From: Raillietiella orientalis | Taxonomy: Eukaryota | Length of the DNA: 64,000 nt | Assembly (NCBI GenBank): GCA_036172245.1 | Contig: JAYWIR010000002.1 | Span: 124,001-188,000 of the forward strand | Direction: 5' to 3' | In this document: one piece after another, positions 1 to 49,580 of the stretch | How positions within the stretch are numbered: position 1 is the first letter of the stretch | Layout of the letters: each line of letters begins with the position of its first letter | Notes under the pieces: model-generated | What the model was told of the DNA's origin: nothing | Database searches by the model: none | Seen by the model: only the letters and a program-made list of their open reading frames with translations | Program-made: the position numbers and the translations under genes

Positions 1-81
1 CTCTTCCACCAGTGCCGCACTCGAAGCCTGCAGCCAACCAGCGTCATCTTGCGAGGGGGGGGGGGAATCGAATTCCAGGAT

Positions 82-164
82 TCACCCATTTTCCGGCGTC
101 AGTTCTTCCCTGGGTGAGATTCGAACCCAGAACTCTTGGCACCATGCGGCCGCCGACGCGGTCC
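82..164 (-). mobile_element. tRNA-derived SINE-like repeat, copy 1 (internally deleted)
   Basis: Minus strand reads ccgcgtcggcggccgcatgg-tgccaagagttct-GGGTTCGAATCTC-acccagggaagaactgacgccggaaaatgg. It has a Pol III B-box and a tail shared with copies at 8871-8938 and 49478-49580. Confidence 0.55.
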
Positions 165-1711
165 TGTGATTTTCTGAGGCTGATGAACGATGGTTTTCCA
201 GGAGCTACTGAAAAGGAAGGAAAGGGTTGTGAAACTTGTGGTTTGGAGGCATTCTTCTTCCTCTGGTTCGCTCTGCGAAGAGCACATTCCGGACGTCGGA
301 TCCCCGCATGGCGTGATGTCCCTCCGCGTGAGCGCGCGAGCAGCTTCCGTAGCAACGGTTTCTTCGATTCACGAACCGTACCTTTACCTCCCTACGCGAA
401 GGGATCCCCTCGGCCGTCGTCTCCAGTGCCAGGAGCAGTGGCTCTTCGTTGTGGCAGGATTTGGGCTGAGAGCACGGGTTGCAAGTTGCGGTCGAGATGC
501 CAACTCCCAGCCCGATCAGGAGGTACTCCTTCGGCTGGGTGAGCGGTTTGGGACACGTAAAGCTGTACTTCGGGACGACCAAATCGGTTTGGACTCCACG
601 CAGATAAAGTATTTTATGACACGTAAATGTACACTTCAAGACAATTAAGTTGTTCTTTACGACAGTCTCTTGGCAGAGTAAGATTTTCCTGGATTGCTTT
701 CACGGGGAGACAGGGACGTTAGGCACGAGAATGCACTCTGTCTTCTTTGCGGGATCGAAAGTTGGTGTTATTTGAACACCGGCGAGTGCAGCTCCGAACG
801 AAGCTCGTTCGTTCCCGAAAATCAATAAGACGTTAGCCGTGTGCCTCCGGCTTTGTTTACGCGTTCATAGTTTTGGCCCTCTCAGCTACTCCCCGCGCCC
901 GCACACATAAAAAGTCGTAACTGGAAACCGAGGAATTGAAGATCATCATCCCCGCCCGTTCGAGATGCGGATGGTGGTTCTCACCCGGTTGCGCAGAGGC
1001 GTTTATTTTCTTCAAAATGGACTCACAAGAGCGATGGCAGATGCTTGGTCATGTTGCGTTCATTGCCAGCAGAGCCTGCTCGAGAAGCCGGCACGCAAGC
1101 CAGCGAGGTTTACTTCGGCAGCAGAAGGGGGAGGGGGACAAACAAAAAGAAAAATAAAATAAAAGTGAGTATATAAAAAAAACCTCTGGAGGGATCGGGA
1201 GGGGATCACAGAATGCTAAAGGGTGTCCTCCTTTCCAGGATGCTGTCAAGTTCCCGCTGGATTGCTCCCAGGTGGGACCTTCTTGATGCGATCCTGCTAA
1301 AGCGGGCTGCCACCTCGACGGCGTCCCTGTCGTCCTGGCCTCCTCTTCTGGCTCTCCATGCCGCCACGATGTCCCGCGTGCTGCTAGGGACGGGTGGCGT
1401 TAGGGCATCACCAACGAAGAGGAGCTTGTCAACGAGATCCGAATGGTGGTGGGTTTTTTTCTAATCCCCCGTTCCCGAGTAGCGTGATGTTCATCAGGTT
1501 ACTCGGGAGTTCGTTCACTGATGTGCATCAGGCAGGTCCCGTGGCTGCTTCCTCTTCCACGCGGAGCTTTCAGGAGCTGCTCAGTGCCAGCAAGGAAACA
1601 ACCTGCTTCCTCTCGTGTTTACGTCGTTTGCTGCTTTTTTCTTTTTTTACATGTATGCTGAGGTGCACGAAACGAAAAGTATTTCTATTTCAAAAAGTAT
1701 CTGGTGCGTAG

Positions 1712-2501
1712 GTGCTACAAGCTGACGGAGGCGACTCTGTGGCTTGTGTTGGTGCAGCAACCATGGCTCTTGTTGATGCTGGAATTTCAATGCAAGATTA
1801 TGCATGTGCATGCACTGCAAGCCTGATAAGAGATGATGCAACGGATGCTATCCACTATTCCAGTAGCTCCAGTGCTCCGCCATCACCGACAGCGATACCT
1901 TATTTTACGGGGTCAGCACCCTCGCCGTGGACTGTTTCTCCATCATCTACATGGTCGCGTACATCCCGCTCGTATTCCTGTTTTTCTAGATCCTGGACAA
2001 GAAGGAGCGTGGATCAAATGCATTCTCGCCTCCCTGGACCTCTTCACCGTCTCCTCCGTCGACCAAACCGTGGTGGCCGTCTCCCAGATATTCATCCATC
2101 CTAAGATCGCGTCAGTCTGGTTCGGCTCCAGCGAGATGCCCACCGCCCGCTCCCTGGGGGTGTTCGGCAACCAGGTGAGCATCGCATTCGGCTTTCTTCT
2201 GCCGTCTCTGCTCGTACCGGGTGAGCCTTCGGTAGAGAAGATGAGGCAAGGCCTGCTCGTTTTGTACTTGGCTGTATCCACCGTCTCCTTCCTCCTCATT
2301 TTGACAGTCTTCCCGGACCACCCCCCGTCGTCTCCCAGTCTGTCCCAGGAGTTCTGCGAGAGTGTCCATCTATTGGTGGATGCAAATCAATTGGAAGAGA
2401 CAATGGATGGACCCATGCTTGTAGCTGCTGTGCTCCCAAAGTCAGAGCGAACTGTGTTACTCCATCTGACTTCAAGATGCCATTTGGATCACTTAGATCC
2501 A
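1712..2501 (+). pseudogene. EXOSC4: EXOSC4/Rrp41 (RNase PH family) exon fragment, split by an insertion
   Basis: After acceptor gcgtAG(1711) it reads VLQADGGDSVACVGAATMALVDAGISMQDYACACTASLIRDD. It resumes at ~2365 as HLLVDANQLEETMDGPMLVAAVLPKSERTVLLHLTSRCHLDHL, matching the Rrp41 C-terminal half. No other exons were seen. Confidence 0.85.
1858..2352 (+). pseudogene. FLVCR: FLVCR/SLC49 MFS transporter fragment, intronless, disabled
   Basis: FQ*LQCSAITD..FYGVSTLAVDCFSIIYMVAYIPLVFLFF*ILDKK, then after a frameshift/deletion GAWIKC...KIASVWFGSSEMPTARSLGVFGNQVSIAFGFLLPSLLVP...FPDHPPSSPSLSQ. TAG stops at 1864 and 1987 replace conserved Trp codons. Confidence 0.85.
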
Positions 2502-2520
2502 GGGAAAAGCATCAGAATTC

Positions 2521-3387
2521 GTCGACATTCACTCTTCCATTTCAAGACCCTCAGTATTTTCGATTACATTAGGAGAATGTAATGAATTCGATTTCGAGCA
2601 CGTTGAAAGTTTCAGCTTTGCACGAATTTCACGTCACCCTCAAACTAAAAGGAACGCCAAGGACAGTCCCCGCTTCTGACGTGAGTTCAAGTCCGAGGAC
2701 GACAGTGAGTTCCAATAAGTGGATCACAGCAGGCTGTTGCGTTTTATCGGGGAAATCAGCTGCCTGCAGTTCACGACGATCCAAGCCACGGAATGCTTCC
2801 GTTCCAACATGTCGAAAGTCGCACTTCAGGATCCAAAACCAGGACGGACCGAGAAGACACGAGCAAAGCGCGCTGGTTCTCCTTCTCGAACGCCCGAGGG
2901 AGAACATTTGAGAAAAGAATGGTAATTGCAGCAAGGGAAGCATCTCCCGGAAATACTGAAACTCGAGGGAAACGTGAAGAGCATCCGTTGTTTCAGTTCG
3001 AATGATCTTTCAAGAACGAATTTTTTACTTTTCGTTGAATGTCCTTACCAAACGGAAGGGCATCTCTTCGACATGGAAACAAGATCAGCTACCTTGCTAC
3101 CAGACACTTATAATATGGACTCGTATGGTGACTTACGTACACTCCTATGTGTACGTCTGTGGCATCCATCGATTAAGGCGCATTTCACTTTCGCTTTCGA
3201 AGATCTAATTGTAATTATTAAACTGATCCCTGGTCCAATACAAACGATTTGGATTCAGCAGTGTTCACTGAAGAATCCACACGTACTGACGGACGTAGCT
3301 GTCAAAAATGACAGCGTATGTAGCTCGTTCTATCTGTGTATCATCATGATTATAAATCACGTGACTCTGCTGGAAGAGAATTCTTAA
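2521..3387 (+). pseudogene. degenerate reading frame of unknown origin
   Basis: About 290 codons in one frame with only 3 stops (~2677, 2716, 2923). It joins ORFs 2719..2925 and 2926..3387. Family not recognised. Confidence 0.35.
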
Positions 3388-3499
3388 GCGGGAATTGTTT
3401 CAAACGAGATGTGAAGAATACTCTTTAACCGATGTACATTGTACATTCTGATGCTTCTCTTTGGCGATAATAATAATCTCTCCGTCGATCTTCTCTTTG

Positions 3500-3750
3500 G
3501 AAATAATCCAAGTGGCATCTTGAAGTCAGCTGGAGTAACACAATTTGCTCTGACTTTGGGAGTACAGCAGCTACGAGCACAGATCCATCCATTGTCCCTT
3601 ATCAGGCTTGCAGCGCATGCACGTATGTAATCACGCATTGGAATTCCAGCTTCAACAAGAGCCATAGTTGCTACATCAACACAAGCCACGAAAGTGCCTC
3701 CACCAGCTTGTAGCAACCACACACCAAATACCTTTTGAAACAGAAATTTC
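3500..3750 (-). pseudogene. EXOSC4: second EXOSC4/Rrp41 exon fragment, inverted relative to the first
   Basis: LLQAGGGTFVACVDVATMALVEAGIPMRDYIRACAASLIRD, then a deletion with frameshift, then TMDGSVLVAAVLPKSEQIVLLQLTSRCHLDY. It shares the upstream intron flank (atttctRtttcaaaaRgtatYtggtg) with 1681-1711, but the acceptor AG is lost. Confidence 0.85.
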
Positions 3751-6355
3751 CCACTTGAGAAACTAGAACCCAGAGGTCGCGGGAATGTACAGTATACACC
3801 GGATAAAAGAGTATTCTGCATATCTCGTTTGAAAAATTCCCGCTTAAGAATTCTCTTGCAGCAGTGTCACTTGATATTTCATCATGATGATACACAGATA
3901 AAGAGAATTAATACGCTGTCATTTTTTGACAGATGCTTCCGGCCTAGCGGATGTGCAACGGCAGTGTGCTCTCCCATGGTGCTCCACTCCTCACCCACGC
4001 ATTCCATTAGGAGTTACCCCCCTAAACGCGCGACTAGAAGGAGAAACGTTCCATTTGTGAATTTTCAGTATATGGAACGAACAGGGAGCTCACGAGTAGA
4101 AGACCCCAGATACGTCGACTCCGGAGTCGGCGTCTCTGTGAGTCACATAGATGATGCTTTTGAGCCAAAAGCGGCCGACGGCACTTCATCCGATATGGGT
4201 GCACATGCACATACATAATGTATTTCGTGTCCAATAATTCTTCTTCGCATGAGTTTCTCTTTCCGGAATCGTGTGGTTTCGAAAGAAGATGGTCGGTTCC
4301 TTCCCACGCACGCTGCTCCAGAGTCCGCCGCACCTGTTCCAGGAGAGGTTCACCACGCCGGCAACTGAGGCAGGGCGGATAAGTAAGTAGAGGGGAATCC
4401 AGATTGAAGCTCGAGCGGTGTTCTTACGCTTCCATGCGGAGTAGGAGAATTTCCGCGTGCTCTCGAAGGGAGGTCAACTCGGCAGCAAGGCTTAATCTCT
4501 GTGGACGCATCTCGGGGATCCTCTCATCGCGTTCTTCAGACACAGGAAGGTTTCGAAAATACCCCGTCTCCCAGGACGGCGGTGTTTGTGGCTGCTGATT
4601 CCAGAGCTCTCATTGTCTTTGGAAGCTCAGGGAGAACGAGCAGAGGGGAGCGAGTCCGCAGCAACCGTTTCCGGGAGACGTTCCTGGTTTGGAACGGAGT
4701 TCTTTTGGGAACTCCGTCAACACGGGACTCTTGAAACCGAAGCTCTCGTGCGCTCGACGAGTCCAGATGCATCTCTTGCGCCCAACTCGCTCCTGCTTAT
4801 CGACCGCGAACCACCGAGGTCTGCTTCAACGTGACTGCTTCAACCTCGGAGGGACGTCGTCGAAACTGCGGACGTATTTGGACGCGTGTGCCACGTCGGG
4901 TGTGTCGGGGAAGGAGGGAGGCGGGATACGCTGGAATACGCTGGTTCCGGGTCTTCTGTGCTCTCACTCGTGGCAACAGGGCGCCTCGAACGTGTTGATT
5001 AAGAAAGCCGTCAGACGCATGCTTGTGCTTCGGAAATTTAATTTTCCTCCGGCAAGCAGAGGAAGAGCGTAGTGGTCGAAGCAAGATGGCGAAAAGAGAT
5101 GCCAGGAAGCAGCCCGTCTAATTCGGAAAAAATGACGGACTTCGCGTCATCAGATTCCCCCCCAGCCCTCCTCCTCACAAAGTCGAATCCGAAGAAACTC
5201 GATAATTTGAATAAATAGGTGTGCCGTAAAGAGAACGCTACAAATGAAAGAGCAAAACAAAAGTTGAGAGTTCTGCAAAATTATTTCCGGATTCGAAATC
5301 CAGGAAAGAGTTCACAGGCATGGAGTCATTCATATATTTCCGGGAAACTTCAGTGCTTGTGTGCACAGCATAGGATCCCGTTCAGGTTTCAGCTACGCTG
5401 AATGGTGACGTCAGCAGGGATTTCATCCTTGCAGGTTGGCTTGGGTGAACTCTGGAAAATGCACCTGGTAGCTCTTCATGGCACTGGCTGCACACGCTCA
5501 TCCTCCTGCTCTTCCTCCCCTTCTCAACGTCGCAAATGATGAGGTGTGATCGGAAGTGCTCTTCGCGCGCGCGAGCCGAGAAGAGCAGCTCCATCAGACG
5601 CTAGACCTCGGTTTGGATTGAGGAGAGTGCTTCATCCCTTTAGCGTCTCCCTCCTGGCACAGAATGGACAGTGTCCCTCGGCTCGAATTTTTCCAGAAGT
5701 CCCCACCCCCGGCATGTTGAAACCTTGCGGTTTGGTTTGAGGCAGCTGATCAGAGAAAGTGGGTTTGCAGGCACGCACTCTTCTGCATCCCCAACGGCCT
5801 GGACCGAGCGAGCAAATCCTGCCGCTTCTGTGCGAGGTTCTGGAGACCTTTCCCAGCTGACTTTGCGATTTCTTTTTTCTTTATCCCCGTAATCGGAGTT
5901 TGGCTTTCCCACCCATCCTGAAAGCATTCGAAGGTGCGCATGGCGGACACAAATTCTCCTGGGAATTTTGTGGGACCGCCACACGTGGAACGAAGACCCG
6001 GTCAAGAAGAATATGCAAGGACGATTGCATCACGCAGATCCGCCGCTCCGGTCATGCAGCTGTGCTTTAGATTTACAACGCTGAGGTCTCATTCCGCGAA
6101 GACTGCACTTCTGATCGGCCGACCGGTGTGATTTCGTGTTCACATTTCATGTCTGCATGCGTAAGATAAAAGTGGCCCTGGGCTTCTTTGGAGCAATTGG
6201 ATCACTTAACACAACCGCCCCGCGGCTCTGTGATCGGCTGAATTGAATTGTGATCAATCAGGAACACGTAGGTCTATTCGCTAGCCGCAAATTAGCCCTA
6301 AATTATCTTTCGGGGGAGAAAAAGGGGGGGAGGAGGAGACGAAAACGTTGCTGCC

Positions 6356-6394
6356 AAGTCGCCCAAGGAAACAACGAGTTTCCTTGGGCGACTT
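6356..6394. promoter_or_regulatory. perfect 17-bp inverted repeat; each arm resembles an RFX X-box
   Basis: aagtcgcccaaggaaac-aacga-gtttccttgggcgactt. The arm GTTTCC-TTG-GGCGAC fits GTYNCC-N0-3-RGYRAC. The palindrome is certain; its function is inferred. Confidence 0.45.
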
Positions 6395-7127
6395 TGTCCG
6401 AGCTTAAATTCACTGGCAAAGTATGAAATGGGAATCGGGGAGCAGAGTGCATATGCGACGAATCGTCTCGCTGGAACTCGGGAGCGCCTCTTGGGGAAGA
6501 GGGCAGGCAACACATCCACGAAACTCGATGCCGGCTCGTGCGGCCCTGCACTGTCGGGGCAGTGTGGATCGCTGGTGGACAGGTCCCGCGCAATCTGGGA
6601 ACGAGAAAGCGGGGGATACTGGGGGCACTGGAAGGTTTTCCAAGTCGCGGATCCCCGTGCACCCTCTTGAGCCACTCTGGCATCGATTTCCGTTCCCTCC
6701 TCTCCCGGAACGGGAAGTCAGGGAAGGAGGTACAACATCGGAGGGCTTCCTCGACCCTGGTGCTTCGGGAACTCTTCGGGCAGGACGATTGAAACGGTGG
6801 AGCAAGGCGGTTTTAAGCTAGAAGGGACAACGTGAACACGCTTCGCATCTTCTTCCTCCTACTCTCGCATCCTCCGTACCTGACAGTAGACTATCGTGTC
6901 GCTTGCCATCCTCTTCTCCTTCCCTTATTCGGTGTATACTGAAAAACCTGGACAGCCTCCAGGTCCAATAATGCTGTTATGTGGAGAATTGGTAGCACTG
7001 TAGAAAGCGTAGGTCATTCATGGTGCACGGCTTCAAATATTCTTTAGTTCGCGTGAATTAAACACGTCGAACTGCACATCTGCATGAGATAGTGGCGATC
7101 TGATTTCTCATTTTTAGGGTGCAAGTA

Positions 7128-7492
7128 CAGTGGTACCTCGGTACTCGTCGGTAATTCGTTCCGGAACTCGAGACGAGTGTCGAAACCGACGAGTACTGAA
7201 CGAGTTCCTTACTAGGCATCATAGTATCACTTTTAACTATTTTAGAGCCTATCATTAACGTTTAAAATGTACAGAAAGCACACAAAAGGGAACGATTCGG
7301 GTGGCACTCTATGGAAGTATTTGGCACTGTTCGCGAGCTACCACGGGACGAAAGTATTCACTTGTTTCATCATGAGTGAGGTGTCGAGTTCCGAGCAGGA
7401 GCCGTGTGTCGAAGCATTTTTTTTCCTCGACAAAATGCGACGAGCACAGACTTCGATGAATTCCTACACTGTCGAGTACCGAGGTAACATTG
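7128..7492. mobile_element. pogo/Tigger-type (Tc1/mariner superfamily) MITE, ~365 bp
   Basis: Left end TA|CAGTGGTACCTCGGTACTCGTC and right end GTCGAGTACCGAGGTAACATTG form a 22-bp TIR with 3 mismatches. No transposase. The right TA is not preserved. Confidence 0.7.
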
Positions 7493-8687
7493 CTCAAGGC
7501 ATGGCCAGTCCGCGGCGTGCGTTGGACTTGGCCGCATCCCTCCACCATGAAGATGTAATTTGGGCCGTGGAAAAGGGAGATGCAGCGTAGGTCACGAAAG
7601 CATCCCGTTTCTTGCACCTCGGCTGCAACAGGAAATTATTTCTGAGTGCACCCACTTTTAAGATCCGCAGCCGTTGCAAGTAACTATGACGTTTTCCTCA
7701 TTAAGGATCACTTCATTCATCATTTTTGCTTATCATGCGTGGCATTCGAGGAAAAGGGGGAGAGGGGGGGAGGGGAATTCTCCCTAATCGCAACCTAGCG
7801 AACTGCTTCGCTAAGTGACCTTCAGCTATCTGGGTAAGCCGAAACTGTCAGCCTGCCGCGTTGCCATTATCTGCTTCGCAGTGACCTGGCAGTCGCAGCA
7901 ATGTTGCAGGCAGGGCAAACTAGCGACGAACTTGGAAAGGAAAAAAAAGAAAACAAAACGCATGTGGCTGTAGCCGTTCTTGGAGACGGATTCTTTCTTT
8001 CTTTTCGCCCGGTCACGCCGGGGTCTTCATTGTAATTCGAATAATTCTCAAGAAACTGTCTTTTTATATAAAATGGAGGTCTTTCTCCGGTTGGTAGCTT
8101 CACAGCACCACTGAGAAGGAAGATGCCTCGGAGGAGCTGCTTCTCGTGATCGCCCGATGAGGTCCGCACAGGAGGAGTGGGGGAAAGAGTGAACAAAAAA
8201 ACACATAAATAAACAAAAGTTCAGTTTTAAGATGTCAGAAAGGAGAGGAAGGGATCACGGATTTCTTCCTGGAGTTCTCAGCCTCCTTTTGTTGGCAGGA
8301 TGTAGCCATCTTGTCACTTTCCTCATGAAGGAGTAAACGATTGCAATAACCCCTCTCCGTTCGGCGCGGCTTCTCGCCGCCACGATCCCATGGACGCAGC
8401 ACGGAGCTGCAAGGGAAGCTGCAGGCTCTGTCTTTTCGGCTATCATTTGATCTCTAGCTGAAACTCCTGGAGGTATAGGAAAGGCCGATCCCTGCCAAGG
8501 TGGTTTCATTGCATTGCGCAAAAGGATCATAATGTTTCGGGAAACAGCAAGAGATAAAGAAGTTTCTGAAAAGAGAACGAAGGAAAATGGGTGATTCCGT
8601 GCGAAGGGCACCCACCACCAGTGATTTAACCATCGAGAAAGAACGGGGTTGGCGGCGCCGTGTGGCTGCGGTTTCTCACCATGACAG

Positions 8688-8828
8688 ACCATTACCTCCA
8701 TCACCATCATCTTACTCATCTCGTACCCCCTATGACTTATACCAACAACTTCCAAGCTTACCATCTCAAACCCTATCAAACTAATAGCAAAAAACATCAT
8801 TAGTAACCTACACCACCAATCCACCTCA
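8688..8828 (+). other. possible NUMT (atp6-like N-terminal fragment)
   Basis: Strongly G-poor, A/C-rich tract. In the invertebrate mitochondrial code it reads TITSITIILLISYPLWLMPTTSKLTISNPIKLMAKNIISNLHHQ with TGA=Trp at 8733, resembling the ATP6 'WLMP' region. Confidence 0.35.
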
Positions 8829-8863
8829 TCAAGGCATGGCCAGTCCGCGGCCATACCTTGATG
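8827..8863. repeat. short fold-back, possible hAT-like TIR remnant
   Basis: catcaaggcatggcc-agtccgc-ggccataccttgatg. The 23-mer tcaaggcatggccagtccgcggc recurs exactly at 7495-7517. Confidence 0.45.
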
Positions 8864-8870
8864 CCAAACG

Positions 8871-8938
8871 TGGTGCCAAAAGTCGCGGGTTCAAGTCCCT
8901 CCTGGCCGGGGAAGGACCGACGCCGAGAAATGGATGCG
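8871..8938 (+). mobile_element. tRNA-derived SINE-like repeat, copy 2 (5'-truncated)
   Basis: tggtgccaaaagtcgc-GGGTTCAAGTCCC-tcctggccggggaaggaccgacgccgagaaatgg aligns with the copies at 82-164 and 49478-49580. Confidence 0.55.
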
Positions 8939-11900
8939 TTGACCTTCCAGTTATGAAAATGGAGCCGTACCATGGAGCAGGGTGATACCTCCCTCGGGAG
9001 TCCTTCTCTCCACAGTCTAAGGAGCGAGCTGCTCCCTCCAGGGAAGCGCTCCTCAGAGAAAGGAAGAAATCTGTGCGGCATCTACGCAAACAGCCTTTTC
9101 CTGACTGGAATCTGCACTGCATAGACACACTCAAGATGTACGTCAAAGGGATCGATACTTAAGAGACCTATCTGGGAAGAATGGCCTTCCTGGGATCGGC
9201 CACAGACACGAAAATCAAGAAGCAATTAAGGATCGCTTCGATACGGTCACCGAACGTTTCCTTAAAAAGGATTCGCCCTTCCCCTCTGTTGCGTTGGTGA
9301 GGATTATTTTGCGCCGAGTTTGAAACTCCAAGCACGTGCATCCGAGAAGACGCCAAGGAAGGCACCGGATGAATGGATGAGGGCTGAATCCGGGAAGTGT
9401 CGGGAACGATCCAGACCCGTCCTATTCGGGTTCGCCTTCCGGTAAGCGAAGAGACTCTGCGGCCGACGCAGGAACAGAGCGGCGAAAAGGAGGAAAAAAG
9501 ACAGCTACCGCATTTCAGACAGAGAGGAAGGCGACCGATTGCGTAGCAGCTTCCCAGCCATCATGAGGGAGGGAAAAGTTCAATTCTGGTCTTTTTTTTT
9601 CTCCCCGGGATGGATTTCTTCATCCAGCGTCCCTGCCATGTGGAAGGCAGCAGTGCTACGTGTACGAGGCGAATACCTCACAGAGATTGGTGACACACGT
9701 CAGCACAGAAGTGCTTGGAGTGCAAAAAGCGCCAAATCTGACTGTGTGTGACAATCTGACGTTTACCTTTCCCGATGCTTGATCAAGGATCCACCTAAAC
9801 GTGCAGTTGTTTGTGTTCCGCTCCTTTACGGATTCCTGATCCACGCGGTATGAAAGGATTTCCATCCTACACCTCCAGAAAACAGAGACGGCTGTTTACA
9901 AAGGAAGAGTCGATTCTTCTTCGCTCTTCACGAAGTGAACGCCTTCACGAAAACTCTGGGTGTCTCTCGCATGAAACATAAAAAAAATAAAAATAAAAAC
10001 TGGAGATCAAGTCGCGGGTTGAAGGATCTTGGTAGAAAGTCACACCTCCTCACTTTTAATGATTTTCATCATCGAACGCCAACACAGGGCTTTCCGGTGA
10101 GTCGCGAAGCCCGAAGCAACTCCGCGTTCATCTCCCGATAAAGTTCTCCAGAAAAAAATCTTTCTCTCTTTGTTCTGTATCTTCGCCTCTCACTTTCCAC
10201 TCGTTTCCTCCATTACTTTTTAGAATCACGAATCACGATTCATGAGTCCACATTCACCATGCTTCTTGCATCCAGTCTGAATCCGCATTCACTTCATATC
10301 GTGGATGTCCCTAGAATTCAGGAACAAAGGGACAATCTCCTCTCAGAACACGTCCACCTCTATTGCAAAGGTCTTTGTCTTCGATGACGCGCGCGCCACT
10401 GCATCTTACAAACACTTGTCGCAATCCCGGGTATGAGGTCGTATGGGTTTTGCACCAGCATGACCTCAAACAGCCGCCGTACACATAGCATGATGTAAAT
10501 GAGGAGATGGGAATGCAGCGAGAGCTACCCTGCTCAACACCGCAGCGAACGCGCACACTTTGCTCCAAAGAAAAACTTAGCAGGCCACTCTTGCTACCTA
10601 AATGCGTCTTCAGACACGTCTCTTGATCGGTTTCCTTCTCGTTTTCGTACTACTCATTCAAATATCCCCATCTCTTTTACCAGAAAAGAAACTGTCTTCC
10701 ATCTTGGCACTGTGAACCAGAATATCAGACTGATTCACAATGCTGATGAGCATCATTACCAAAATAATCAGTCTTAAGGTCCTGTTAAACTCTTGTCCCC
10801 CTCTAATTCCATGCCGACAGGCGGTTTTTTACTTTTCAGTTATAAGATATCTGAAACCTGTCAAAAGCTTATGCGATCAGCTCATTCCTGCTACCCAGCC
10901 TAACTTGTGTTCCCTATTTTGGTGGGGAAAATTAAATTCCTCTCCGTTTCTTGCTGACGTCAGTATATTTTCTCCGTCTGCATCCATTGCAAGAATCTTT
11001 CTCCTTCTTGGTACCTAGCTAGCTGAATACAAACCGAAATCACTGTACTTCGTACCGGTTCGGATGACGTTTGATGCCCACGTCTGCTGCATTTACATTT
11101 TTGACACATCGTAACTGCAGCTCAGATATCGATCTGAACTCGAAGATCTTTCCTCCTCCTTAAAAAAAGATGTGCACTGGTGTTTTTTTTTCTTTAAAAA
11201 AAAAAGAAAAGCAAAGAGGACGATTTGAAGAAGTATCCAATTACTTTCTAAATACTTTTTAAAAAAAAAAAAAAAAAAAACAGAATTTATTTTCATTAGT
11301 TAGGCTTTTGACTGGTGCACCTGCGTGAGTCTTACTTATGATCAGACGTGGAACACTGATTACACAGCTTTCTTACGTGGGTTGATGCGAAGAGGAAAAT
11401 TGCCTCCCCACTGAAATGCATAGGGCTATTTGGGTCCCTTTCCTTTGAGAAACGTGGATTTCGTAAGGGCAGCACTCGTCCCTATGGCGATGACGGCGAA
11501 TAACTTCCGGAGTCAGTTCTTCGAATGGTTATCCGTAAACCTTATTCCTTCCCTCGGAATCGATAAACAGAAGAGAATGAATATAAATTAACAGGTGTGT
11601 ACAAGATCTCCTTCCATCCCGGAAGCTCCGTGCACGCGTTCCTTACAGACAGAAGGGGCTTCGCCATAGCATAAATCCATCAAGTGGCTTTGCTTTCAAC
11701 GAAAGGGATTTCCTCTGGATTCCGATACCTCGTTGGTTGTTGTGGCAACCGGAACGCTGCGAGTGAGCTGAGGGTTTCTCTGGAAAGAGGTTTGGAGCCC
11801 TTTAAATGGTTTCCAACGGAAAGTTTCGCACCCTGGGATCGTCATAGCAGTCGTTGCAAAAATCACTCTGAAATGGGGTCAGATGCTGAGGATCGACCCA

Positions 11901-37486: not shown

Positions 37487-38103
37487 ATGGTGGAAGAGGA
37501 AATTGTTCACATAAATAAGCCAGAATTACAGAGACCACCAGTTAGGACAGCTGCTGATTTGCAGCGGTTGAGGCTAGAAAGACTTTTAGAGCATCCAGTA
37601 GGTGTTATCAATGATTATGGAATTAAAATGCAATCAACTAATTGCAGGAAAGACCTATAATAATTCCAGAACGTCCTCCTGAGCGTTCATTTCCAGAACC
37701 TCCAGAATTTGTTCGTAATGTTATGGGATCTAGTGCAGGTGCTGGCAGTGGGGAATTCCATGTGTATCGACATATTAGGAGAAGAGAGTATGCCCGGCAA
37801 AGATTCATTGCAGCCCAAGCACGTAGAGAAGAGCTTGATGCCGATTTTCAAAAACGTCTCCAAGAAAATCAGGAAAGATATGAGCAACGAACTGCAAAAC
37901 GTCGACTGAAGCGATTGAAAACTAAAGAGAGAAAAAGAAAAAAGCAGCGGACGGAAAAAACAGCACCTGTTTGCCCCGCATCCCCTCAGGATGAACCCCA
38001 TACTGAATCAGATTATTCACCTGAACATGTAAATGAAGAAGATATAAGCCTGGAAGAGTTGCAAGAGAATGCACAAAGTGAAAGTGACCCTAATGTTGAG
38101 TAA
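37487..38103 (+). CDS. PRKRIP1: PRKR-interacting protein 1 homolog (spliceosome C* factor), 188 aa
   Basis: Exons 37487-37597 and 37648-38103 with a 50-nt GT-AG intron. Contains [14 protein letters not shown] and the signature [31 protein letters not shown], followed by a basic coiled coil. Confidence 0.95.
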
Positions 38104-41100: not shown

Positions 41101-44100
41101 AGAATAACCACCCCACAATGGAGCAGCAAGAATCTACTGCTTGTGATAATCACTGCGCTAGCTGAGAAGCCTGTTTCTTGAAAACATGCACTCAGGCCAC
41201 GGTAGCATGCTGCGAAGAGCATTTCTTGTTTCTTGAAGCGTCCAAGAGAGCGGTAACAGCAGCAGAAGATCCTCGTTCATCGGGGATTTGCAAGCGCCTT
41301 CTCAAAGATCGAAAAGAAGATTGCGCTGCTCAAGTGCCTGACTGCTCGACTGATGTGTTGAAATTCTGTTGGAGGCACCACCCCGCTTATTATTACACGC
41401 TCCCTCTCTTCTCCGGTTCCGTCGGCTGCTTTCGAGAAGGCAGGAGGGGAAAGGCGAGCCCAGCAGCAAGAAGAGCGCTTGCGATCTGCTGACACGCTGA
41501 GCTCTTTCACGAAGGATCAGTTCCGTCTTTCCCGGATCGAGTCTCGGTGATGGATGCCCTGAAGTTTCGATGCGGCGCCGGACGTGAGGATGACGTGCCA
41601 GCAAAGTTCCGGGTTTTCCTGTCGCGACCGCCGCGCAGGGAGGAAACCGAGAAGGTGTGCATTCGTCACGCGAGGGCACCAAAGGATGCTCAGGGAGGGA
41701 TGAAGGATGATTCGCTTTCGCGGCAAGGGAGCAGACGAGCAGCTGCAGGACTGAAGGCGGTGGTGGGCCTCTCGTTGTTTACTTTAGCGGAGGGGGAAAC
41801 GCGAGAGGGAAACACGCATCCGCATGCTCCTTGTTTATTTAAGCAGCATCTGAGGCGATGGTGACGTATCGCGAACCGGATGCCAGGTATGCTGGAGTGT
41901 ACCGAGCACGGGAATTTCAAACCGGCGGATCAGCCAATCAGCCGAGAGCGAGGCAGGGTGGATGGGCTTTGTGCGCTGAGGAAGAGTGCAGTTGTTTTCC
42001 TTCCTCTTTCCCACTGCTGTGTTCTAGGGGTAAGCAAGAGGAAGGGGGAAGGGCGGCGCGCGGAGCAGGAGACTTCTCTCACGGACCCAAGGAATCGCCG
42101 CTACCAGAGTTTTTCATTACCCCCGAGGCGAAGGGAGCGAATGCTGTTCCTCCCCCCCCCCCTCCTTCCCTTCCCTTTCCGTCTTGTTTCAACCCCTCTA
42201 GACGCAAAGGGACCTCAGCTCTCCCCTTGGGAGGAACCAGCACTTCGGACCTTCGTCTTCGAATAGAAATGCGTAGCCCATACGCGGGAGGGAAAGGGGG
42301 GGGAGGTGCGCTCGTCCCGCGATGGGCAGGGGGCGCTTTCGACGGCGTTGGGATGGTCACGCATGTGGCCTTGAGATCTGCCGCGAAAGCCGCCTGCCCC
42401 TTGCTCCGGCGTGGTCTCACTTCCGGTACCTCTCTACATGTGGCCGGTACCGGAGCAGAACACGAACGCGTCCCCCACCTCGTGCTCGAGACAAGGAGGA
42501 AGAGAGACGCTCGGGTCAGAGGGACCAGAGGGACACCCCCCACGGATAGCTCCGGGGCTGCGCCGGAGCTTCCGGGGCGCCTCTCCTCGCATCGCTTCCC
42601 GGTCATGCGGGGAAGGAGGTCGGGCAAGGCGACCAGGAGGTCCCTCCGCGGTCCTTCCAGAAGAAGGAACCTTGCCGGGTTTCCGATTCCTGGGGGAGGG
42701 CAGGTCTTGAGGTGATCCTCTCGCCGACTCCATGCTCGCTGTGCACCTTCGGCACAGGAAGGGGGGCCCTGTTCGGGGGAGACGCCGCCGGCGATTCCTG
42801 GCGAGCAGTCCCTCGCGCCCACGCCTCTGCCCTGCCTTCTGCTTGGGTCCAGGCGGGAGAGGGAGGTCAATGGGCAGATTCCTCTGGCTGCCACGTCCTA
42901 AATCTTCCCGGTAGAGAGGATGGGGAGGGTAAACGCTTCCCCTCACCTTCCTTCCTTCGCTGGACCGGATATCCTCGGGAGTGGACGGGAGGTCAGCGTT
43001 GTTTCCCACGTGTTACGGCTCTCTACGTTGCTGCGCAAGGGACTTCCGTCGATTGGGAGTGGGTAGTCACTCCAGTCCCGAGGGGTCCGAGGAGAGGAGA
43101 GTCACTCACGTTCCTTCCCTCCCATTGCGCACCCTTGCCGCACCCCACCCCATCGTTGCGGCCCCGCTGATCCCCTTCGAGCCTCGCGCTCCGGAGGGCG
43201 GAGGCCCCACCACCCCTCGTACGATCCTTCGGGGAAGGGAAAGGGCGCGGACGGCGGGTCGCCCTTGTGCTCCTCCCCGAGGTGCTCCCTGATCGAGGCC
43301 CGAGGGCGCGTCTTGCGCCCCAGGACTCCGAGGAGCAGGAGGAAGGGGGCTCCCGTCTCCAGGGGTTCCAGTGGAGACGCCGAGAACAACCCTTCCTTCT
43401 GGCGACCCTTCTTCCCTCCCTCATTCGAGACTTCTGCCGTCCCCTCGCCTGCCTCCGCTCCCATTGCCCTGGGACCCGGGAAGATGCGGAGGGGGGAGCG
43501 GTGTCTTCAGGATGACGGGAAGGGAAGCTCCCCACCGGTGAAAGGGCGCAGAGAGACTGCAGGTACGGACGAGGTCTCCGGTCCTTTCCCCCCTCCCCTT
43601 TCCCTTTCTCCTTTGCTCCCCCGCTTCCGTCTCAGGAAGGCTGCTAGCCCTTCCAGTCCCTCATTCCTGTGCCTGCCGGGAAGGGCCGCGAGACAGCCCG
43701 CGATGCTGTGAGGCTACATCGCGAACTCCTCCTCATGCTTTGCAGCGCCCCGCCGGTCCGAAGGCGCTGAAGCTAACGCCCTCCGGAGCAGCATGACGGG
43801 AGGTGCTCCCGGGACGCCCCCGACCCAGGGAAGCGGCAGCCCCAGAACCTCCGCCGTCTCGAGCGATGCCCGGGCGGCTCGGAGCCCCTGAGGATCTCTA
43901 GTCGGCCGCAAGGTCAGGACCTCTTCCGCAGTCACCGGGCAGGGGCGGGCTTCGTGGTCGAATGGATCCTTTGCCGTTCTCATGCCAGCGACCTGCGCAT
44001 CTGCCGGCGGCGGATGCATCCGGCCGAGGATGCAACTCACCTGCATCTCTTTGAGGGATGGCACGCGGCGAACCCCAGTGCTCCAGGACCCACGGTTTCC

Positions 44101-47100
44101 CTCCCTCCCCTCCCAATTCTTGGCGGCTCCGCCGTCACCCGCTCGAGACGTCCATGACTACGCCAGTGGGGCGCCCGTCCCTTCCACCTACCCGGGGGGG
44201 CGTCTCCTGCCCCCATCTCGATGTGCCCATCCTCGAATGGGCTCTAGGAAACCGCCAGCAAGATCACCCGGAAGTCCGCTTCCGTGGGCAAGCATTCTTG
44301 GAGGCGAAGAAGGGAGGAGGAGGGAAGCGTCACAGACCCTTCTGGAACATTGCGGCCCGACAGGATGAGGGAGGGAAAGCAGGGAGCAAGAGGAGGTCCA
44401 ACCGACACCCCCTTCTCCACTTTTCTTCAGCCCCGTGGGGCGTAGGAGCTCCTCGGAAGGCACGGAAGCTTCGCTGCCCCTCCGAAATCGGGTGAGAACC
44501 TGACAGGAGTGACCGAGGTACAGCCTTTGAGAAGGTTCGCCCTCAAAACCGCCGCACCCCACTTCGTGGGCGAGAAGGAGGGGCGGAATGCGGGTGTTCC
44601 ACTGGCGGGATCACGGAGCGACGAAGCCACCACCACGACCCTCCTGGGAAAGCGGTCCTTTCGAGCTGGGTGGCACCCTGGGTCGCTGCGGGGTGCGCGC
44701 GGAGGGGGCGGCCGGATGCTGGTGGGGACTTGCACCCCCTCTGCTTCCTGCCGCCAAATCGCCGACACTTGCGAGTGCCTGCTTGAGGTCGGCCTCCAGG
44801 TCGAGGTGTTCCGTTGGCCTACGGGCTGGGCATTCGCGCGCTCCTTAGGGAGGACTTCCCTCGCAGTCCTCCTAAGGAGGGAGCCTGCTCGGACCTCCGC
44901 TCCCTCGAAAGGCGTCCCGGAGGATCGCTGCGACGGTCACCGTGGAAGGGACGGACTCGCCTTACCATGGAATCGCTGACGTCACGGGACGGAGTCCTCC
45001 AGGCGACGGATGCACGCCCGATGCGCGGCTGGGGCGGGTCGCCCCTTCGCCGGCGGCCACGTGGGAGTCGTCGCGCCCCCCTCCACCCCCATCCCTACCC
45101 TCGCGAAACCCGTCCGGCGGGTCTCGCGGAGGATCCTTAGCCGGGGCACCAGGAGGGCGGCAAGCGTGGCGGCGCCATGCGGGAAGGGTGGCCCGGCAGG
45201 CAGAGACGGACCACCCTTTCCTGAGGGATCGCGCGCTGCCCTCGCTCCGCCGCACGCGCTAGGAGGCGCCGAAGGAACCGCCGGGGGCGGTGGACTTGAG
45301 CGGCCGGCCGGCCGTCGCTGGAAGCTGTCGCCGTCTTCGAGTGTCCCGAGAGGGGGAGGGAGGGGAGGAGAATGGGAAGATCTCCCTCGGAACACCAGCG
45401 CTTGGAAACGGGGGACAGCTTCCGGGAACGAAAGTAAGCCACGAGCAAAGAGAGGGGCGCCCGAAGCGACCGTCGGGATCCGAGCACCTCTGATCCGGGG
45501 CCGCTTCCCCCGGGAAATATGGACGACGACGACGCTCGAGAGTGGGGCCCGGAGAGGGAACGCGCCATCGAGGGGATGCGGGCCTCGAACGAGGGTTGAG
45601 AGGGAGGAGGAAGTGGGCCGTGAGCGGACTGGTGAGAAGGAAGGGAGGAAGAGAGAAGAGGAGGAGGAGGACGCCAAAATGGTGGCGACAGCGTGCTGGT
45701 CATCGCGTCGGAAGGAGTTCGCAGTCCGACAGGATGAGGGGAGGGAGAGCGGGGTGTGAGAGGAGGCCCGTACCCTTCTCGGAGAGAGCCTGAAGCACCC
45801 TTTCCGGAAGCACTTCCCTTTCTCCCTACCGGGATTCCCCTCCCACCAACGTTCCCACGGCGCCTTCCGCTTTCCGTCGGGATCCGGTTTCAGAGATGCC
45901 AGCGGTGGGGTTTGGCGGAAAGGCGGACGGATGGGCATGCGGAGGACTGTCGTCCCCTGGGAAGTCCGCGTTGGGCGTGGCGTCCCTTTGCCCTCCCACC
46001 GCGGCGAGAGGTCTCGGCCCCACGAGAGTGGCAGGAGCGGGGCTCGCCCCGTCTCTCCCTCCCTCCCTCCGTCCCCCTCCCTTCTCTCTCGCTCTTTCAC
46101 TCTTTCAAAGCGCTCTTCGCGACGACGGTGGCGGGCTCCACGGAGGCTCCACAGGGGTGGGGACTTCGAAGGGGGTAACCTGCGTCTCCCTCTGTGAATT
46201 GGCGATCCCCCCTCATCGGTTACCCCTCCCCTTCCTTCCCTCTGTGAGGGGCTCCTTCCCGGTCGGAGGGTTCCTCCCGTGGCCCGGGTCTGACACGTCC
46301 CTCGGGGGAGCTCCGTGCATGGTCTCTGTGATCCGCGCCAGAGGGTGCCATGAGCGCCCTCCGACCCTCCTCCTGTGAGGGCCACGTGATCTCCGAGAGC
46401 TGAGGGCAGTGGCTTCTCGGCTCCACCGGCGTGCCAATCGCTCTCGCGGCGAAGCGGGGAAAAGGGTCAGGAACGGGGAGGAGCGCGCCCTCGGCCGAAG
46501 TGGCCCGCGCACGGCCCTTCCCTGGAGGCGCCCCTTCGCTCTTCTCCCAGCAGCGGGGACGCCCGGAGGGTTGACGTCCCTCGGACGCATGTTGCCTGCG
46601 TCTGACTGCCCGGCGCCCCTCGCACCCAAGGGCGGCAGAGCGACTGCCTTCAGCAAAAGAAGCGGTGCGGAGGGGGGAGACTGCCCACGGGTCAGCATCA
46701 GCCTCACATCTGCTACGGGGGGATCACCGTTGGGAAAGGGCGCTTGCCGTGGCGGCATTCCGAGGGTGTCTTCACCCGGGGGTACCCGGCAGGCCCCTCG
46801 CCTTCCCCTCCTACCACTCCGGGAACCTCGGAGACGGGAAGGAGGAGCACCGAACTCTGACCTCTGCTCTCCGCAGCAGACTCATCTCCCGACGGCAAGC
46901 AGTGGCCTCCCTCAGTCGCGCGCAGGGTTCTTCCCAGCGGATGGCCCTTCCTCCTATGAAACCCTCCCTGGGTCCGCCGCAGGGAGGTCCTCAGATCGCG
47001 ACGAACCCGCCTTCCTTCCCTTCCTTCCCATTTCCGGAGAAGCAGAGGCTGACAGCCACTCGAGCAACTCGCTCCGTGGGGCCCCCGTCGGGGCGGGCGG

Positions 47101-47399
47101 AGGGAACGCGCGTGGTCCTGGATTTCATTCTTCTCACCGTTCTGGGCTGAGGGACGCCTCGGGGAAGTCGTCGCGAAGAGGTCGGCGGCGAGAAGGCATC
47201 GGCACAGGTGAGCCGCAGATCGTGCGCTGGCAGCCCTGCTGGAAGGCTCGATGTTTTGCTCCACGCTAGCGGCGAGAAGTCTATAAATAGCTCGCACAGG
47301 CGGCAACGGATCAACAATGCGTGCGTCCTCGGCGCAGGATGCGCGCGAGAAGGGAGCATGGCGGCGGGCGCTGCCCCGTTCTGGATCCCTCGTGCCGAG

Positions 47400-48100
47400 T
47401 CGCAACGGTTCCAGTAACATACGTGTTCCTTGCTTTCCCGGAACTTCTGCCCAATAGCAGAACGGTGAGTACGCAGTTGGAATCATCAATCGTTCCGCTT
47501 TCCAGTTCATAAACGACTCCGACCAAGTAAATTTTTTGTCGTGTGTTGAACGGTTTCCTTTGACAACGAAAGTGGGGGTGCGCATCCTTTTTTTTCTCGA
47601 AGGGAGCGTTTCAGCACGACATCCCATGGGAGTGGACTGCAGCGCAACAATGCAGTCGACGGGCGCACCAAGCGGGAAACAAGCGTTTCGTGAACCTTCC
47701 GAGTTCGCCATATCGGGAATAAAGTGCAACAAAATGGCGCACCTCGAGCATGGCGCATTCCAGGCCCACGGTGCACGTGGGACGTTGTTGGGTCATCTGA
47801 GAGGGCCTCGGTACATCAGGAGCGTTCGGGGCTCAGGACTTCCGACTTCGGGAACTGCTAAACACACGGCAGTCGGCACTGCTGTATAAGTCGGAGCCCT
47901 GGGTTTGGTACGCTATGCGACGGGAGGACGTCCAGTTCACGATCGCCCTCGGGGCACCCGATAAGCAGTTGGCCTTTCCCTGGTGGTGGTAGCAAGGACA
48001 CTTGCCTCGGGGAAGAGTTTCTTCCGTGTGAGGCCAGTAGACCCTTCTCCTCGCTCCCAGCATCGAAAGAGCTGCCCGATCAGCTAGTTCCACTCGAAAT
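47400..48100 (+). mobile_element. possible highly decayed RTE-clade LINE reverse transcriptase relic
   Basis: Lower-GC island with frameshifted peptides in RTE order: RFPLTTKVGVRILF, LLGHLR..RGSGLPTS, SALLYKSEPWVWY (cf. LLYGSETW) and PSIE. Weak. Confidence 0.25.
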
Positions 48101-49477
48101 CCAGAATTCGCCTTTTCAGGGAGGGTCACGCAAAGGTCGCCGGGACAAGCATCTCACGCGCGTCCCGGAAGCGGGACGACTCCCGCTTCCGGGAGACCGG
48201 CGCACGGAGAAGACGGGGGTCGCTCTCGAAGGGGAGAAATCGCGCCCACCTTCGCTTCCCGGCAGAGCGCGCGCGCGGCATCCCAGGAACCGTTCTTTCC
48301 CGGAAAGACGGGTTCGCTCGGCGGGGAACGCCCGAGGGCAGCAAACCAGCCTGCTTCACGCCTGGCATCACCTTCCCGGCCCCGTTTTTTCGGACGAAGA
48401 GGCGACGGCTGCCTTCCGGCTCCTGGTTCCAGGGAAGAGGCGCTGAGGTGATGACCTCGAGGGCACTCCTTTCTAGGGTCACACCCTCGTGTCCCTGCCG
48501 ACGTGCTGCGCCCCCTCCTACGCCTTCGAGGGAGAGCGAGGTGTGGCTTCCCCCATGAAGTGGACGATGGCGACTTTCCCGGCAGCGTGGGTAGAGCCTC
48601 GTTGCACGGCGGAGGCATCGCTCGCGACCTAGGGAGGGGCGTGGACTTTCTTTGAATTTCCCCGGAGGTCTTTGGGCTTTACCGCAGGACTCTCCTTCGT
48701 CCCCTTCCCTCCCGCTCTGGCCGACTCTCCCTCTGGCTCACTGGCTCTGAGATCTCCCTCGCAATGAGCAGCCAGCGTCATAGAGACTCCTCCGACGGTA
48801 AGGCGATTCTCGGAGGCCTGCGCGCGCCCCGGAGGGCCGCGGGAGCCCTTTCTCGCGAGTTGCCTGAGCGCGCCCCGCAAGGGTTTGGCACGACTGGAGA
48901 TGTGTCGCCAGGGGGCAGCGCTCGACAACTCCGACGACGCTCCTCGAGGTTCCTTCCCGCCTTTTTGCCGCCACACCCGCGAGTCACGGTGGCAGCGAGG
49001 ATGGACGAGGTTTGCTGCCCCAGGGTTGCGACACGCCCTCCCATGGTGACGCGGGGCGGGACATTGCGGGAGAACGCCCAAGGGCGGCGGGCGGGAACGC
49101 TCGCGAAGGAAAGCCACCGTGGCGCTCATTCGCTCCTCCCTTCCTGGAGCAGACCCTCGGGATTCCCGGTCACTGGAAAGGAACCCCTTGAGGGGGGCAG
49201 TCAACCTCATGAACGTAATGGGGGATCCCTCCGTAGCGGAAAAAGGGTGGGGGCGGAGCGGCTCCACTTGCACAACCGGAGGGGGAGCCCTGATGGGCCC
49301 AAAGGGATAACTGGAAGGACCTCCGATGGTCCACTTCCAATCCCGGGGGCCACTCGACGGGGTTATCCGGTTTCCAACGCTCACGCATCTCCCACCGGTG
49401 CCGTATCCGAGACCCATGGACCAGTCAGCGTCATCCTGCGGAGGGGAGACTGGATTCCCACGACGCACACTCCCTCC

Positions 49478-49580
49478 CCCCATTCTTGGCGCCGATCCTT
49501 CACTGGGGGTGGATTCGAACCCACGACGCTCGTTGCCGCGCGAGCGGCAGCGACGCAGCCACGCGGCCGCCAACGCGGGT
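49478..49580 (-). mobile_element. tRNA-derived SINE-like repeat, copy 3 (most complete)
   Basis: Minus strand: cccgcgtTGGCGGCCGCGTGG (A-box-like) ...cgtcgtGGGTTCGAATCCacccccagtgaaggatcggcgccaagaatgg (B-box plus shared tail). No acceptor stem. Confidence 0.55.

Follow-up and report, generated by a model that had tools for sequence, protein, structure and literature searches.

The locus raises two questions: by what route did coding sequence of a FLVCR-family transporter come to lie within an exon of Rrp41 (EXOSC4), and does the open frame that now runs through parts of both belong to a gene? The preliminary description of this DNA had read the arrangement as a gene fragment inserted into an EXOSC4 exon, with a target-site-like duplication, through gene-fragment shuffling by an unidentified mobilisation or break-repair route. 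We analysed the two coding sequences, their junctions and their surroundings within the window, by which we mean the whole 64-kb stretch of DNA. The mosaic is ordinary decayed gene-fragment debris in an animal genome, and an example of an already known kind.

Two coding sequences at one locus

The Rrp41/EXOSC4 exon lies in two halves, at 1712–1858 and 2365–2500 of the window, with ~505 nt of FLVCR-family coding sequence between them (1858–2363). The change from one coding text to the other occurs at TCCACTATT on the left (1851–1859) and at TCCATCTATT on the right (2365–2374), which confirms the interruption as it was originally reported. Table 1 collects the coordinates of the features; copy A denotes the interrupted exon and copy B a second, inverted copy downstream.

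Table 1. Features of the interrupted exon, its inverted copy and the adjoining repeats, in window coordinates
Feature	Position	Strand	Remarks
Upstream-intron stub of the Rrp41 exon	1681..1711	+	Ends ...GCGTAG, acceptor-like AG; common to copies A and B
Copy A left half, Rrp41/EXOSC4 exon, frame 2 (VLQADGG...SLIRDDATDA)	1712..1850	+	Human RRP41 residues 127–168
AAGAGA, left edge of the stretch absent from copy B, then ...CAACGGATG	1828..1833	+	
Open frame of 249 codons	1833..2582	+	FLVCR part 1 out of frame, part 2 in frame, Rrp41 tail, 27 further codons
Junction repeat, left copy TCCACTATT	1851..1859	+	
FLVCR fragment part 1, frame 1	1858..2003	+	In-frame stops TAG at 1864–1866 and 1987–1989
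FLVCR fragment part 2, frame 3	2004..2363	+	FLVCR2 residues 187–308, FLVCR1 residues 187–308
Junction repeat, right copy TCCATCTATT	2365..2374	+	
Copy A right half, Rrp41 exon, frame 3 (LLVDANQLEETMDGP...HLDHLD), plus ~20 nt common to copy B	2365..2517	+	RRP41 residues 169–211
AAGAGA, right edge of the stretch absent from copy B, then CAATGGATG	2395..2400	+	
Inverted-repeat left arm, abutting copy B	3290..3448	.	85% identity over 161 nt to 3941–3783, E 2e-43
Copy B, same exon and intron stub, inverted and frameshifted	3449..3750	-	Without 1834–2394 of copy A
Inverted-repeat right arm	3783..3941	.	32 nt between arm and copy B

The left half of copy A (1712–1858) translates as VLQADGG...SLIRDDATDAIH and matches residues 127–168 of human RRP41 with an E-value of 1.1e-10. 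The stop-to-stop frame at 1830–2582, which encodes 250 residues, matches residues 187–312 of FLVCR2 (E 2e-21) and then residues 169–211 of RRP41 (E 0.0013). Against individual orthologue representatives, the left half is 68% identical to residues 130–170 of P0034, and the right half matches residues 173–214 of the same protein and residues 93–133 of P0103. Altogether, 160 representatives match the host pieces at E ≤ 0.001, which establishes their Rrp41 ancestry. The FLVCR ancestry of the insert is supported by collinear matches (FLVCR2, E 1.4e-21; FLVCR1, E 1e-16; both in part 2) and by the match of 1867–1986 to FLVCR1 residues 127–162 (E 5e-4). Both identities would have been missed if Pfam had been used alone: the Rrp41 piece scored 15.9 bits against RNase_PH, below the cut-off of 25.5 bits because the piece is short, and the long frame was assigned to no family.

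The host piece is a stray, duplicated exon

We searched the whole 64-kb window by tblastn with 150 listed Rrp41 representatives. Strong matches were confined to 1712–1858, 2355–2546 and, on the opposite strand, 3497–3737, and no other Rrp41 exon was found in the 64 kb by this search; the remaining hits had E-values of 0.006 or worse and were visibly junk. Residues ~128–216 are the only part of Rrp41 present in the window. With the other exons missing, copy A interrupted and copy B frameshifted, the window contains no functional EXOSC4 gene, and the earlier reading of the host as an EXOSC4 exon, in the sense of part of a gene, has to be replaced by that of an isolated, duplicated pseudo-exon with an intron stub.

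The two copies align by blastn over 1681–1833 versus 3747–3595 (84.4% identity, E 9e-42) and over 2395–2489 versus 3600–3506 (89.5% identity, E 6e-31). When 1600–4000 was compared with the whole 64 kb, blastn returned three match pairs, these two between copies A and B and one between the arms of the inverted repeat, and nothing further. Homology between the copies begins at 1681, 31 nt upstream of where the Rrp41 protein homology begins (1712), and it ends ~20 nt past HLDHLD, where the inverted repeat of copy B begins. Because the homology between the copies extends past the protein homology, the duplicated unit is one exon that was copied as unspliced DNA together with stubs of its introns. 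Judged by these boundaries, the host unit is neither an EXOSC4 retrocopy nor the working gene.

Copy B yields tblastn matches in frames -3 and -1. The stretch that it lacks relative to copy A (1834–2394) comprises the insert together with ~53 nt of exon, and AAGAGA...CAAYGGATG occurs at both edges. Since the two AAGAGA edges form a direct repeat, slippage can explain the deletion, and the simplest account of the gap would be a 53-nt slippage deletion in an exon that was free of the insert. A gap of this origin would make copy B uninformative on the insertion site.

Relatives of the host piece were sought more widely. A word-indexed protein search with the 49-residue Rrp41 piece found no match among longer proteins, and a metagenome scan for its close relatives returned three loci with 45–63% identity, the parent not being among them.

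The insert is a dead internal fragment

The insert spans residues 127–308 of the 555 residues of FLVCR1, or about one third of a transporter of 500–555 residues. The FLVCR query set consisted of 32 proteins with E ≤ 0.001, from arachnids, crustaceans, fish and unnamed sources, with identities of at most 53%. By tblastn, 30 of the 32 give two collinear pieces, 1858–2004 in frame 1 and 2004–2339/2366 in frame 3, and the remaining two give a single piece each, spanning the second piece or both. At the change of frame, FLVCR1 residues ~163–186 are replaced by 26 nt, the result of a deletion and frameshift in which ~15 codons were lost. With two stops, a frameshift and a deletion, the insert is a dead internal fragment.

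Homology to FLVCR reaches to ~8 nt from the left junction and to 0–16 nt from the right one; it thus fills the insert, and transposon ends would not fit in. The insert ends (1860/2364) showed no inverted repeat, and neither an A-run nor a T-run occurs there (1851–1870 and 2340–2375). The absence of poly(A) and of terminal inverted repeats, already noted in the preliminary description, is therefore borne out both by the letters and by the inverted-repeat search. Of the features that would mark known mobile routes, the poly(A) and mRNA 3' end of a LINE retrocopy are lacking, as the similarity to FLVCR1 ends at residue ~308, and so are the terminal inverted repeats of a Pack-type element. The end of the insert, read as ...GCGAGAGTG, is also without the CTRR of a Helitron.

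The pieces differ in composition. The GC content is 0.57 in the insert versus 0.49 and 0.46 in the exon halves, and the observed/expected CpG ratio is 0.89 in the insert versus 0.38 and 0.14 in the exon halves, with 0.14–0.56 for the Rrp41 pieces overall and 0.92 for the window. The insert had been called CpG-rich, which holds in relation to the exon halves but not in relation to the window; it is the Rrp41 pieces that are CpG-poor. The composition of each piece may still reflect that of the gene from which it came.

The insert runs across two intron positions of human FLVCR1

The variant tables of a 2026 review (PMC13195507) assign p.Gly244 and p.Asn245 of human FLVCR1 to exon 1, p.Thr249, p.Gly252, p.Phe253, p.Ala283 and p.Ile290 to exon 2, and p.Ser305 to exon 3; one row of these tables, p.Phe229fs, labelled exon 2, conflicts with its neighbours. 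By these rows, codons 245 and 249 flank intron 1, and codons 290 and 305 flank intron 2. Our FLVCR1 alignment is numbered natively, and its C192, P221, A241 and N245 agree with the residues in the tables. The insert is collinear across both tabulated intron positions, with gaps of 3, 1 and 3 residues, and intron 1 corresponds to 2169–2183 of the window. To the extent that these tables define the human introns, the uninterrupted span hints at a cDNA origin of the insert. The 'intronless' reading of the preliminary description is thereby supported, though not proven. Either of these introns in the parent FLVCR gene would mean that spliced RNA was the source of the patch; with a parent free of introns, the patch could be DNA rather than cDNA.

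At 2166–2180 the insert reads GGC AAC CAG/GTG AGC (G-N-Q/V-S), a consensus-like splice donor at the position that the same tables give for intron 1 of human FLVCR1, and the coding text runs on through it. The sequence may represent a proto-splice site retained by a copy that has no introns.

We also considered the insert as an intron of the host exon and rejected this reading. Copy A reads straight through the position at which orthologues have an intron, window 2379/2380, which lies 15 nt downstream of the right junction, and the junction regions (1851–1866 and 2359–2364) offer no usable GT...AG pair that would keep the frame.

Many orthologue fragments stop after ..TPxLG. In a eukaryote contig (L002, 5001–5110), the Rrp41 exon ends ATT ATA G/GTAAAA, where a phase-1 intron splits the Asp codon of L-x-D. 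Breaks of this type recur in many of the orthologue fragments that end ..TPxLG and are absent from copy A.

The junction repeat and the rejoined exon

An imperfect direct repeat of 9/10 nt, with one indel, lies exactly where the homologies change. We compared it with random pairs of places of the same spacing within the window and found a repeat of at least 9 nt with at most one edit in 447 of 4000 pairs when zones of ±20 nt were allowed, and in 209 of 4000 with narrow zones, for an overall chance rate of 5–11%. The surrounding sequence abounds in repeated GGATG and CTATT motifs. As a target-site duplication, the junction repeat is suggestive, not proof. The claim of a target-site-like duplication accordingly stands in so far as the repeat is present at both junctions, but it is only weakly above chance and the exon rejoined across it has an atypical loop.

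The loop became apparent when the exon was rejoined without the insert. The proposed restored sequence, IRDDATDAIHLLVDANQLEE, is indeed in frame, but it places the conserved L-V-D 30 residues past the DAGI anchor. Among the 75 orthologue representatives with both anchors, this spacing is 24 residues in 59 and at most 28 in 73, with 25 in seven, 26 in one, 27 in three, 28 in three, 36 in one and 41 in one, the last being a mis-anchored match; another 68 representatives break off earlier, mostly at exon ends. The rejoined Rrp41 loop is 6 residues above the mode.

The right-hand CTA TTG GTG GAT (L-L-V-D) is clearly Rrp41. The left-hand ACGGATGCTATCCAC could be a loop peculiar to the lineage, or else filler generated at the junction, and the weak duplication together with the atypical loop suggests that part of the left 'Rrp41' text (~1841–1859) may be such filler. 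The parent EXOSC4 exon would discriminate between the two: if it contains GATGCTATCCATCTATTGGTG once, the duplication is real, and if it is without ACGGATGCTATCCAC, that text is junction filler. An alternative junction at the GGATGC repeat (1843–1848 and 2378–2383) was rejected, because CTA TTG GTG (L-L-V, 2370–2378) before the Asp fits the conserved (P)LV-D of the orthologues.

A patch at a repaired break

With moderate confidence, we interpret the insert as a patch of cDNA or DNA that was taken up when a double-strand break in a pseudo-exon was repaired, and the locus as non-functional debris that formed in three steps. Initially, one Rrp41/EXOSC4 exon was copied as DNA together with ~30 nt of upstream intron and ~20 nt of downstream sequence; the two exon copies, inverted and ~1 kb apart, are both present. 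A break inside copy A would then have been mended with a ~505-nt internal piece from the FLVCR family, probably cDNA because the piece is uninterrupted where human FLVCR1 has two introns according to the variant tables. The junction repeat could have arisen when staggered ends were filled in, or when a few bases were copied across the break during microhomology-mediated end joining. Finally, the locus decayed, the FLVCR piece gaining its stops, frameshift and deletion and copy B losing 53 nt between its two AAGAGA..CAAYGGATG repeats. A break-repair route, one of those proposed at the outset, fits an internal fragment with neither poly(A) nor inverted ends.

Human class 2 templated sequence insertions, as described by Onozawa and Aplan (PMC5110952), are cDNA patches joined by end joining and without poly(A). 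The insert agrees with them in coming from the interior of a distant gene and in having neither poly(A) nor a polyadenylation signal. The junction is what speaks against the patch: class 2 insertions are defined as being without target-site duplications, yet a 9/10-nt repeat is found here, at a chance rate of 5–11% that neither establishes nor dismisses a duplication. Microhomology, a small deletion or filler would be expected at class 2 junctions. The repeat could be a duplication or templated filler, and the loop that is 6 residues longer would fit filler at ~1841–1859. If the chimera were multicopy in the genome, a carrier element would be the better explanation.

Retrotransposition and carrier elements

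A LINE could have driven target-primed reverse transcription of a FLVCR mRNA into the pseudo-exon, and the 9/10-nt repeat would then have arisen as a genuine target-site duplication. The repeat has a suitable length (7–20 nt) and lies exactly at both ends, the insert is uninterrupted at the two tabulated human intron positions, and 'class 1' insertions of non-LINE RNAs with target-site duplications are known (PMC5110952). We nevertheless find this origin unlikely. Neither end carries a tail of poly(A), poly(T) or microsatellite sequence, the target does not resemble TTTT/A, and the fragment stops at FLVCR1 residue ~308 of 555, so that the 3' end of the mRNA, where copying starts, is missing. 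Moreover, no reverse transcriptase or endonuclease domain was found in 89 of the 142 window frames of at least 110 codons, or in the 123 frames of at least 45 codons in 1–9000. The junction repeat alone favours class 1 over class 2; the poly(A), the mRNA 3' end and the TTTT/A target of class 1 are missing.

Alternatively, the pieces could be cargo of a DNA transposon that carries host fragments (a Pack-type element with terminal inverted repeats, a foldback element or a Helitron), the mosaic having arisen inside the carrier. Copy B gives this explanation its substance: 160-nt inverted repeats (85% identical, E 2e-43) closely flank it and form with it a 652-nt unit (3290–3941) whose interior is almost entirely captured exon, and this exon is unspliced and still has its intron stubs, as would be expected of capture at the DNA level. 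However, copy A is without such arms, and the FLVCR insert neither ends in inverted repeats nor leaves space for any. A Pack-type element would also be expected to have a flanking duplication of fixed length and several genomic copies. Beyond 3290 and 3941 we saw no duplication, the 64 kb contains no further copy of the arms, and no transposase was found in the same two sets of frames (89 of 142 of at least 110 codons; 123 of at least 45 codons in 1–9000). We consider such cargo unlikely; given the arms of copy B, a carrier transposon may have had a part in the locus as a whole, but it does not explain the FLVCR insert.

Each 160-nt arm of the 3290–3941 unit has a small palindrome, GCTGTCA-AAAA-TGACAGC, near its outer end. 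From its layout, the unit looks like a small foldback or terminal-inverted-repeat element with a captured exon. The joint proposal, that copy B is such an element and that the chimera is a second product of the same exon-shuffling activity, is quite unlikely in our estimate. Were it true, a Pack-type carrier would have been active in an animal lineage and capable of producing open chimeric frames.

The 249-codon frame

The 3' part of the FLVCR fragment and the Rrp41 tail do share one ATG-to-stop frame of 249 codons (1833..2582), as was first reported. Approximately 161 of these codons, in FLVCR part 2 and the Rrp41 tail, are open by descent, and the odds that the two would share a frame are one in three. 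The remaining ~85 codons do not exceed what the surroundings provide, frames of 150–180 codons being abundant in 1–6000. Most simply, the frame would be a chance by-product, two stretches open by ancestry having fallen into one frame, and not a gene. We searched the whole 250-residue frame against a collection of 5.8 billion proteins and scored 1860 candidates, among which there was no chimera and no close relative; the search returned 17 FLVCR/MFS proteins, with a best identity of 46%.

It is very improbable that the frame is instead a young, expressed chimeric gene. In its favour, FLVCR part 2 and the Rrp41 tail lie in one open frame of 249 codons that begins with ATG. However, over its first 58 codons this frame runs through FLVCR part 1 in the wrong register, and it contains ~120 residues of a 12-helix transporter and 43 residues of an RNase PH fold, neither of which is a complete domain. 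The frame contains no Pfam family, no similar protein was present among the 1860 candidates, and frames of 150–180 codons are common in the neighbouring non-coding DNA. The locus is also a caution to annotators, who might record the frame as a spurious 'FLVCR/exosome fusion protein'.

An assembly artefact that joined EXOSC4 and FLVCR reads is very unlikely, because the insert is decayed and the second junction leads back into the exon that was left at the first; neither partner is an intact gene, both having decayed to pseudogene sequence, and the window contains no runs of N.

The rest of the window

The scanned frames of at least 110 codons (89 of 142) contain DM (Dmrt-type), DUF1168, PH, LRR and GDPD domains; the unscanned frames mostly overlap others in the GC-rich region at 41–57 kb. 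In the 123 frames of at least 45 codons in 1–9000, Pfam gave two sub-threshold chance hits, Tli3 (E 0.027) and PDGF (E 0.036). No tRNA, Rfam family or tandem repeat was found near the interrupted exon.

A 14-kb island at 42000–56000 has a GC content of 64–68%, compared to 33–53% elsewhere in the window. The DM-domain (Dmrt-like) frame lies at 51245–51784 (+) and a 755-residue LRR frame at 54829–57093 (-). At 37642–38100 (+), a single open frame holds nearly the whole DUF1168 (PRKRIP1-like) domain (E 7e-43), and may be an intron-poor gene or a retrocopy. Close to the left end, at 60–150 (-), text resembling the 3' half of a tRNA, with a GGTTCGAATC-type T-arm, lies beside a C/G run, as in a tRNA-derived SINE; ARAGORN and Rfam made no call at 60–150.

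Comparison with known systems

Compared to class 2 templated insertions, as characterized in PMC5110952, the FLVCR insert is alike in being an internal piece of ~0.5 kb from a distant gene, with no poly(A) or polyadenylation signal, at a single site and with short homologies at its junctions. It differs in its flanking 9/10-nt imperfect repeat, and in that the case is non-mammalian, old and decayed, its RNA origin being inferred. With class 1 insertions and LINE-derived processed pseudogenes, as the same paper describes them, it shares a junction repeat of at least 5 nt and an apparent freedom from introns, but not the poly(A), the mRNA 3' end or the TTTT/A target.

The junction also invites comparison with filler DNA, to which it is similar in that the repeat could be copied from the other side of the break and in that GGATG and CTATT recur locally. 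Filler DNA, the product of synthesis-dependent microhomology-mediated end joining, usually consists of tens of bases copied from nearby, whereas the insert is 0.5 kb from another gene.

Pack-MULEs and Helitrons capture gene fragments and build mosaics of host pieces; the hallmarks of Helitrons are 5'-TC ... CTRR-3' ends, a 3' hairpin and insertion between A and T. The locus resembles their products as a mosaic of unrelated host genes, with copy B an unspliced exon between long inverted repeats. It departs from them in that the FLVCR insert is without element ends, that we saw neither a flanking duplication nor additional copies in the 64 kb, and that the scanned frames contained no transposase.

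Taken on its own, the locus is one more case in which breaks are patched with stray gene pieces and single exons are scattered, and it matters little in itself. Gene-fragment carriers with inverted repeats are well documented in plants and rarely in animals. Consequently, if exon-bearing inverted-repeat units like that of copy B prove to be numerous across the genome, the locus would matter more.
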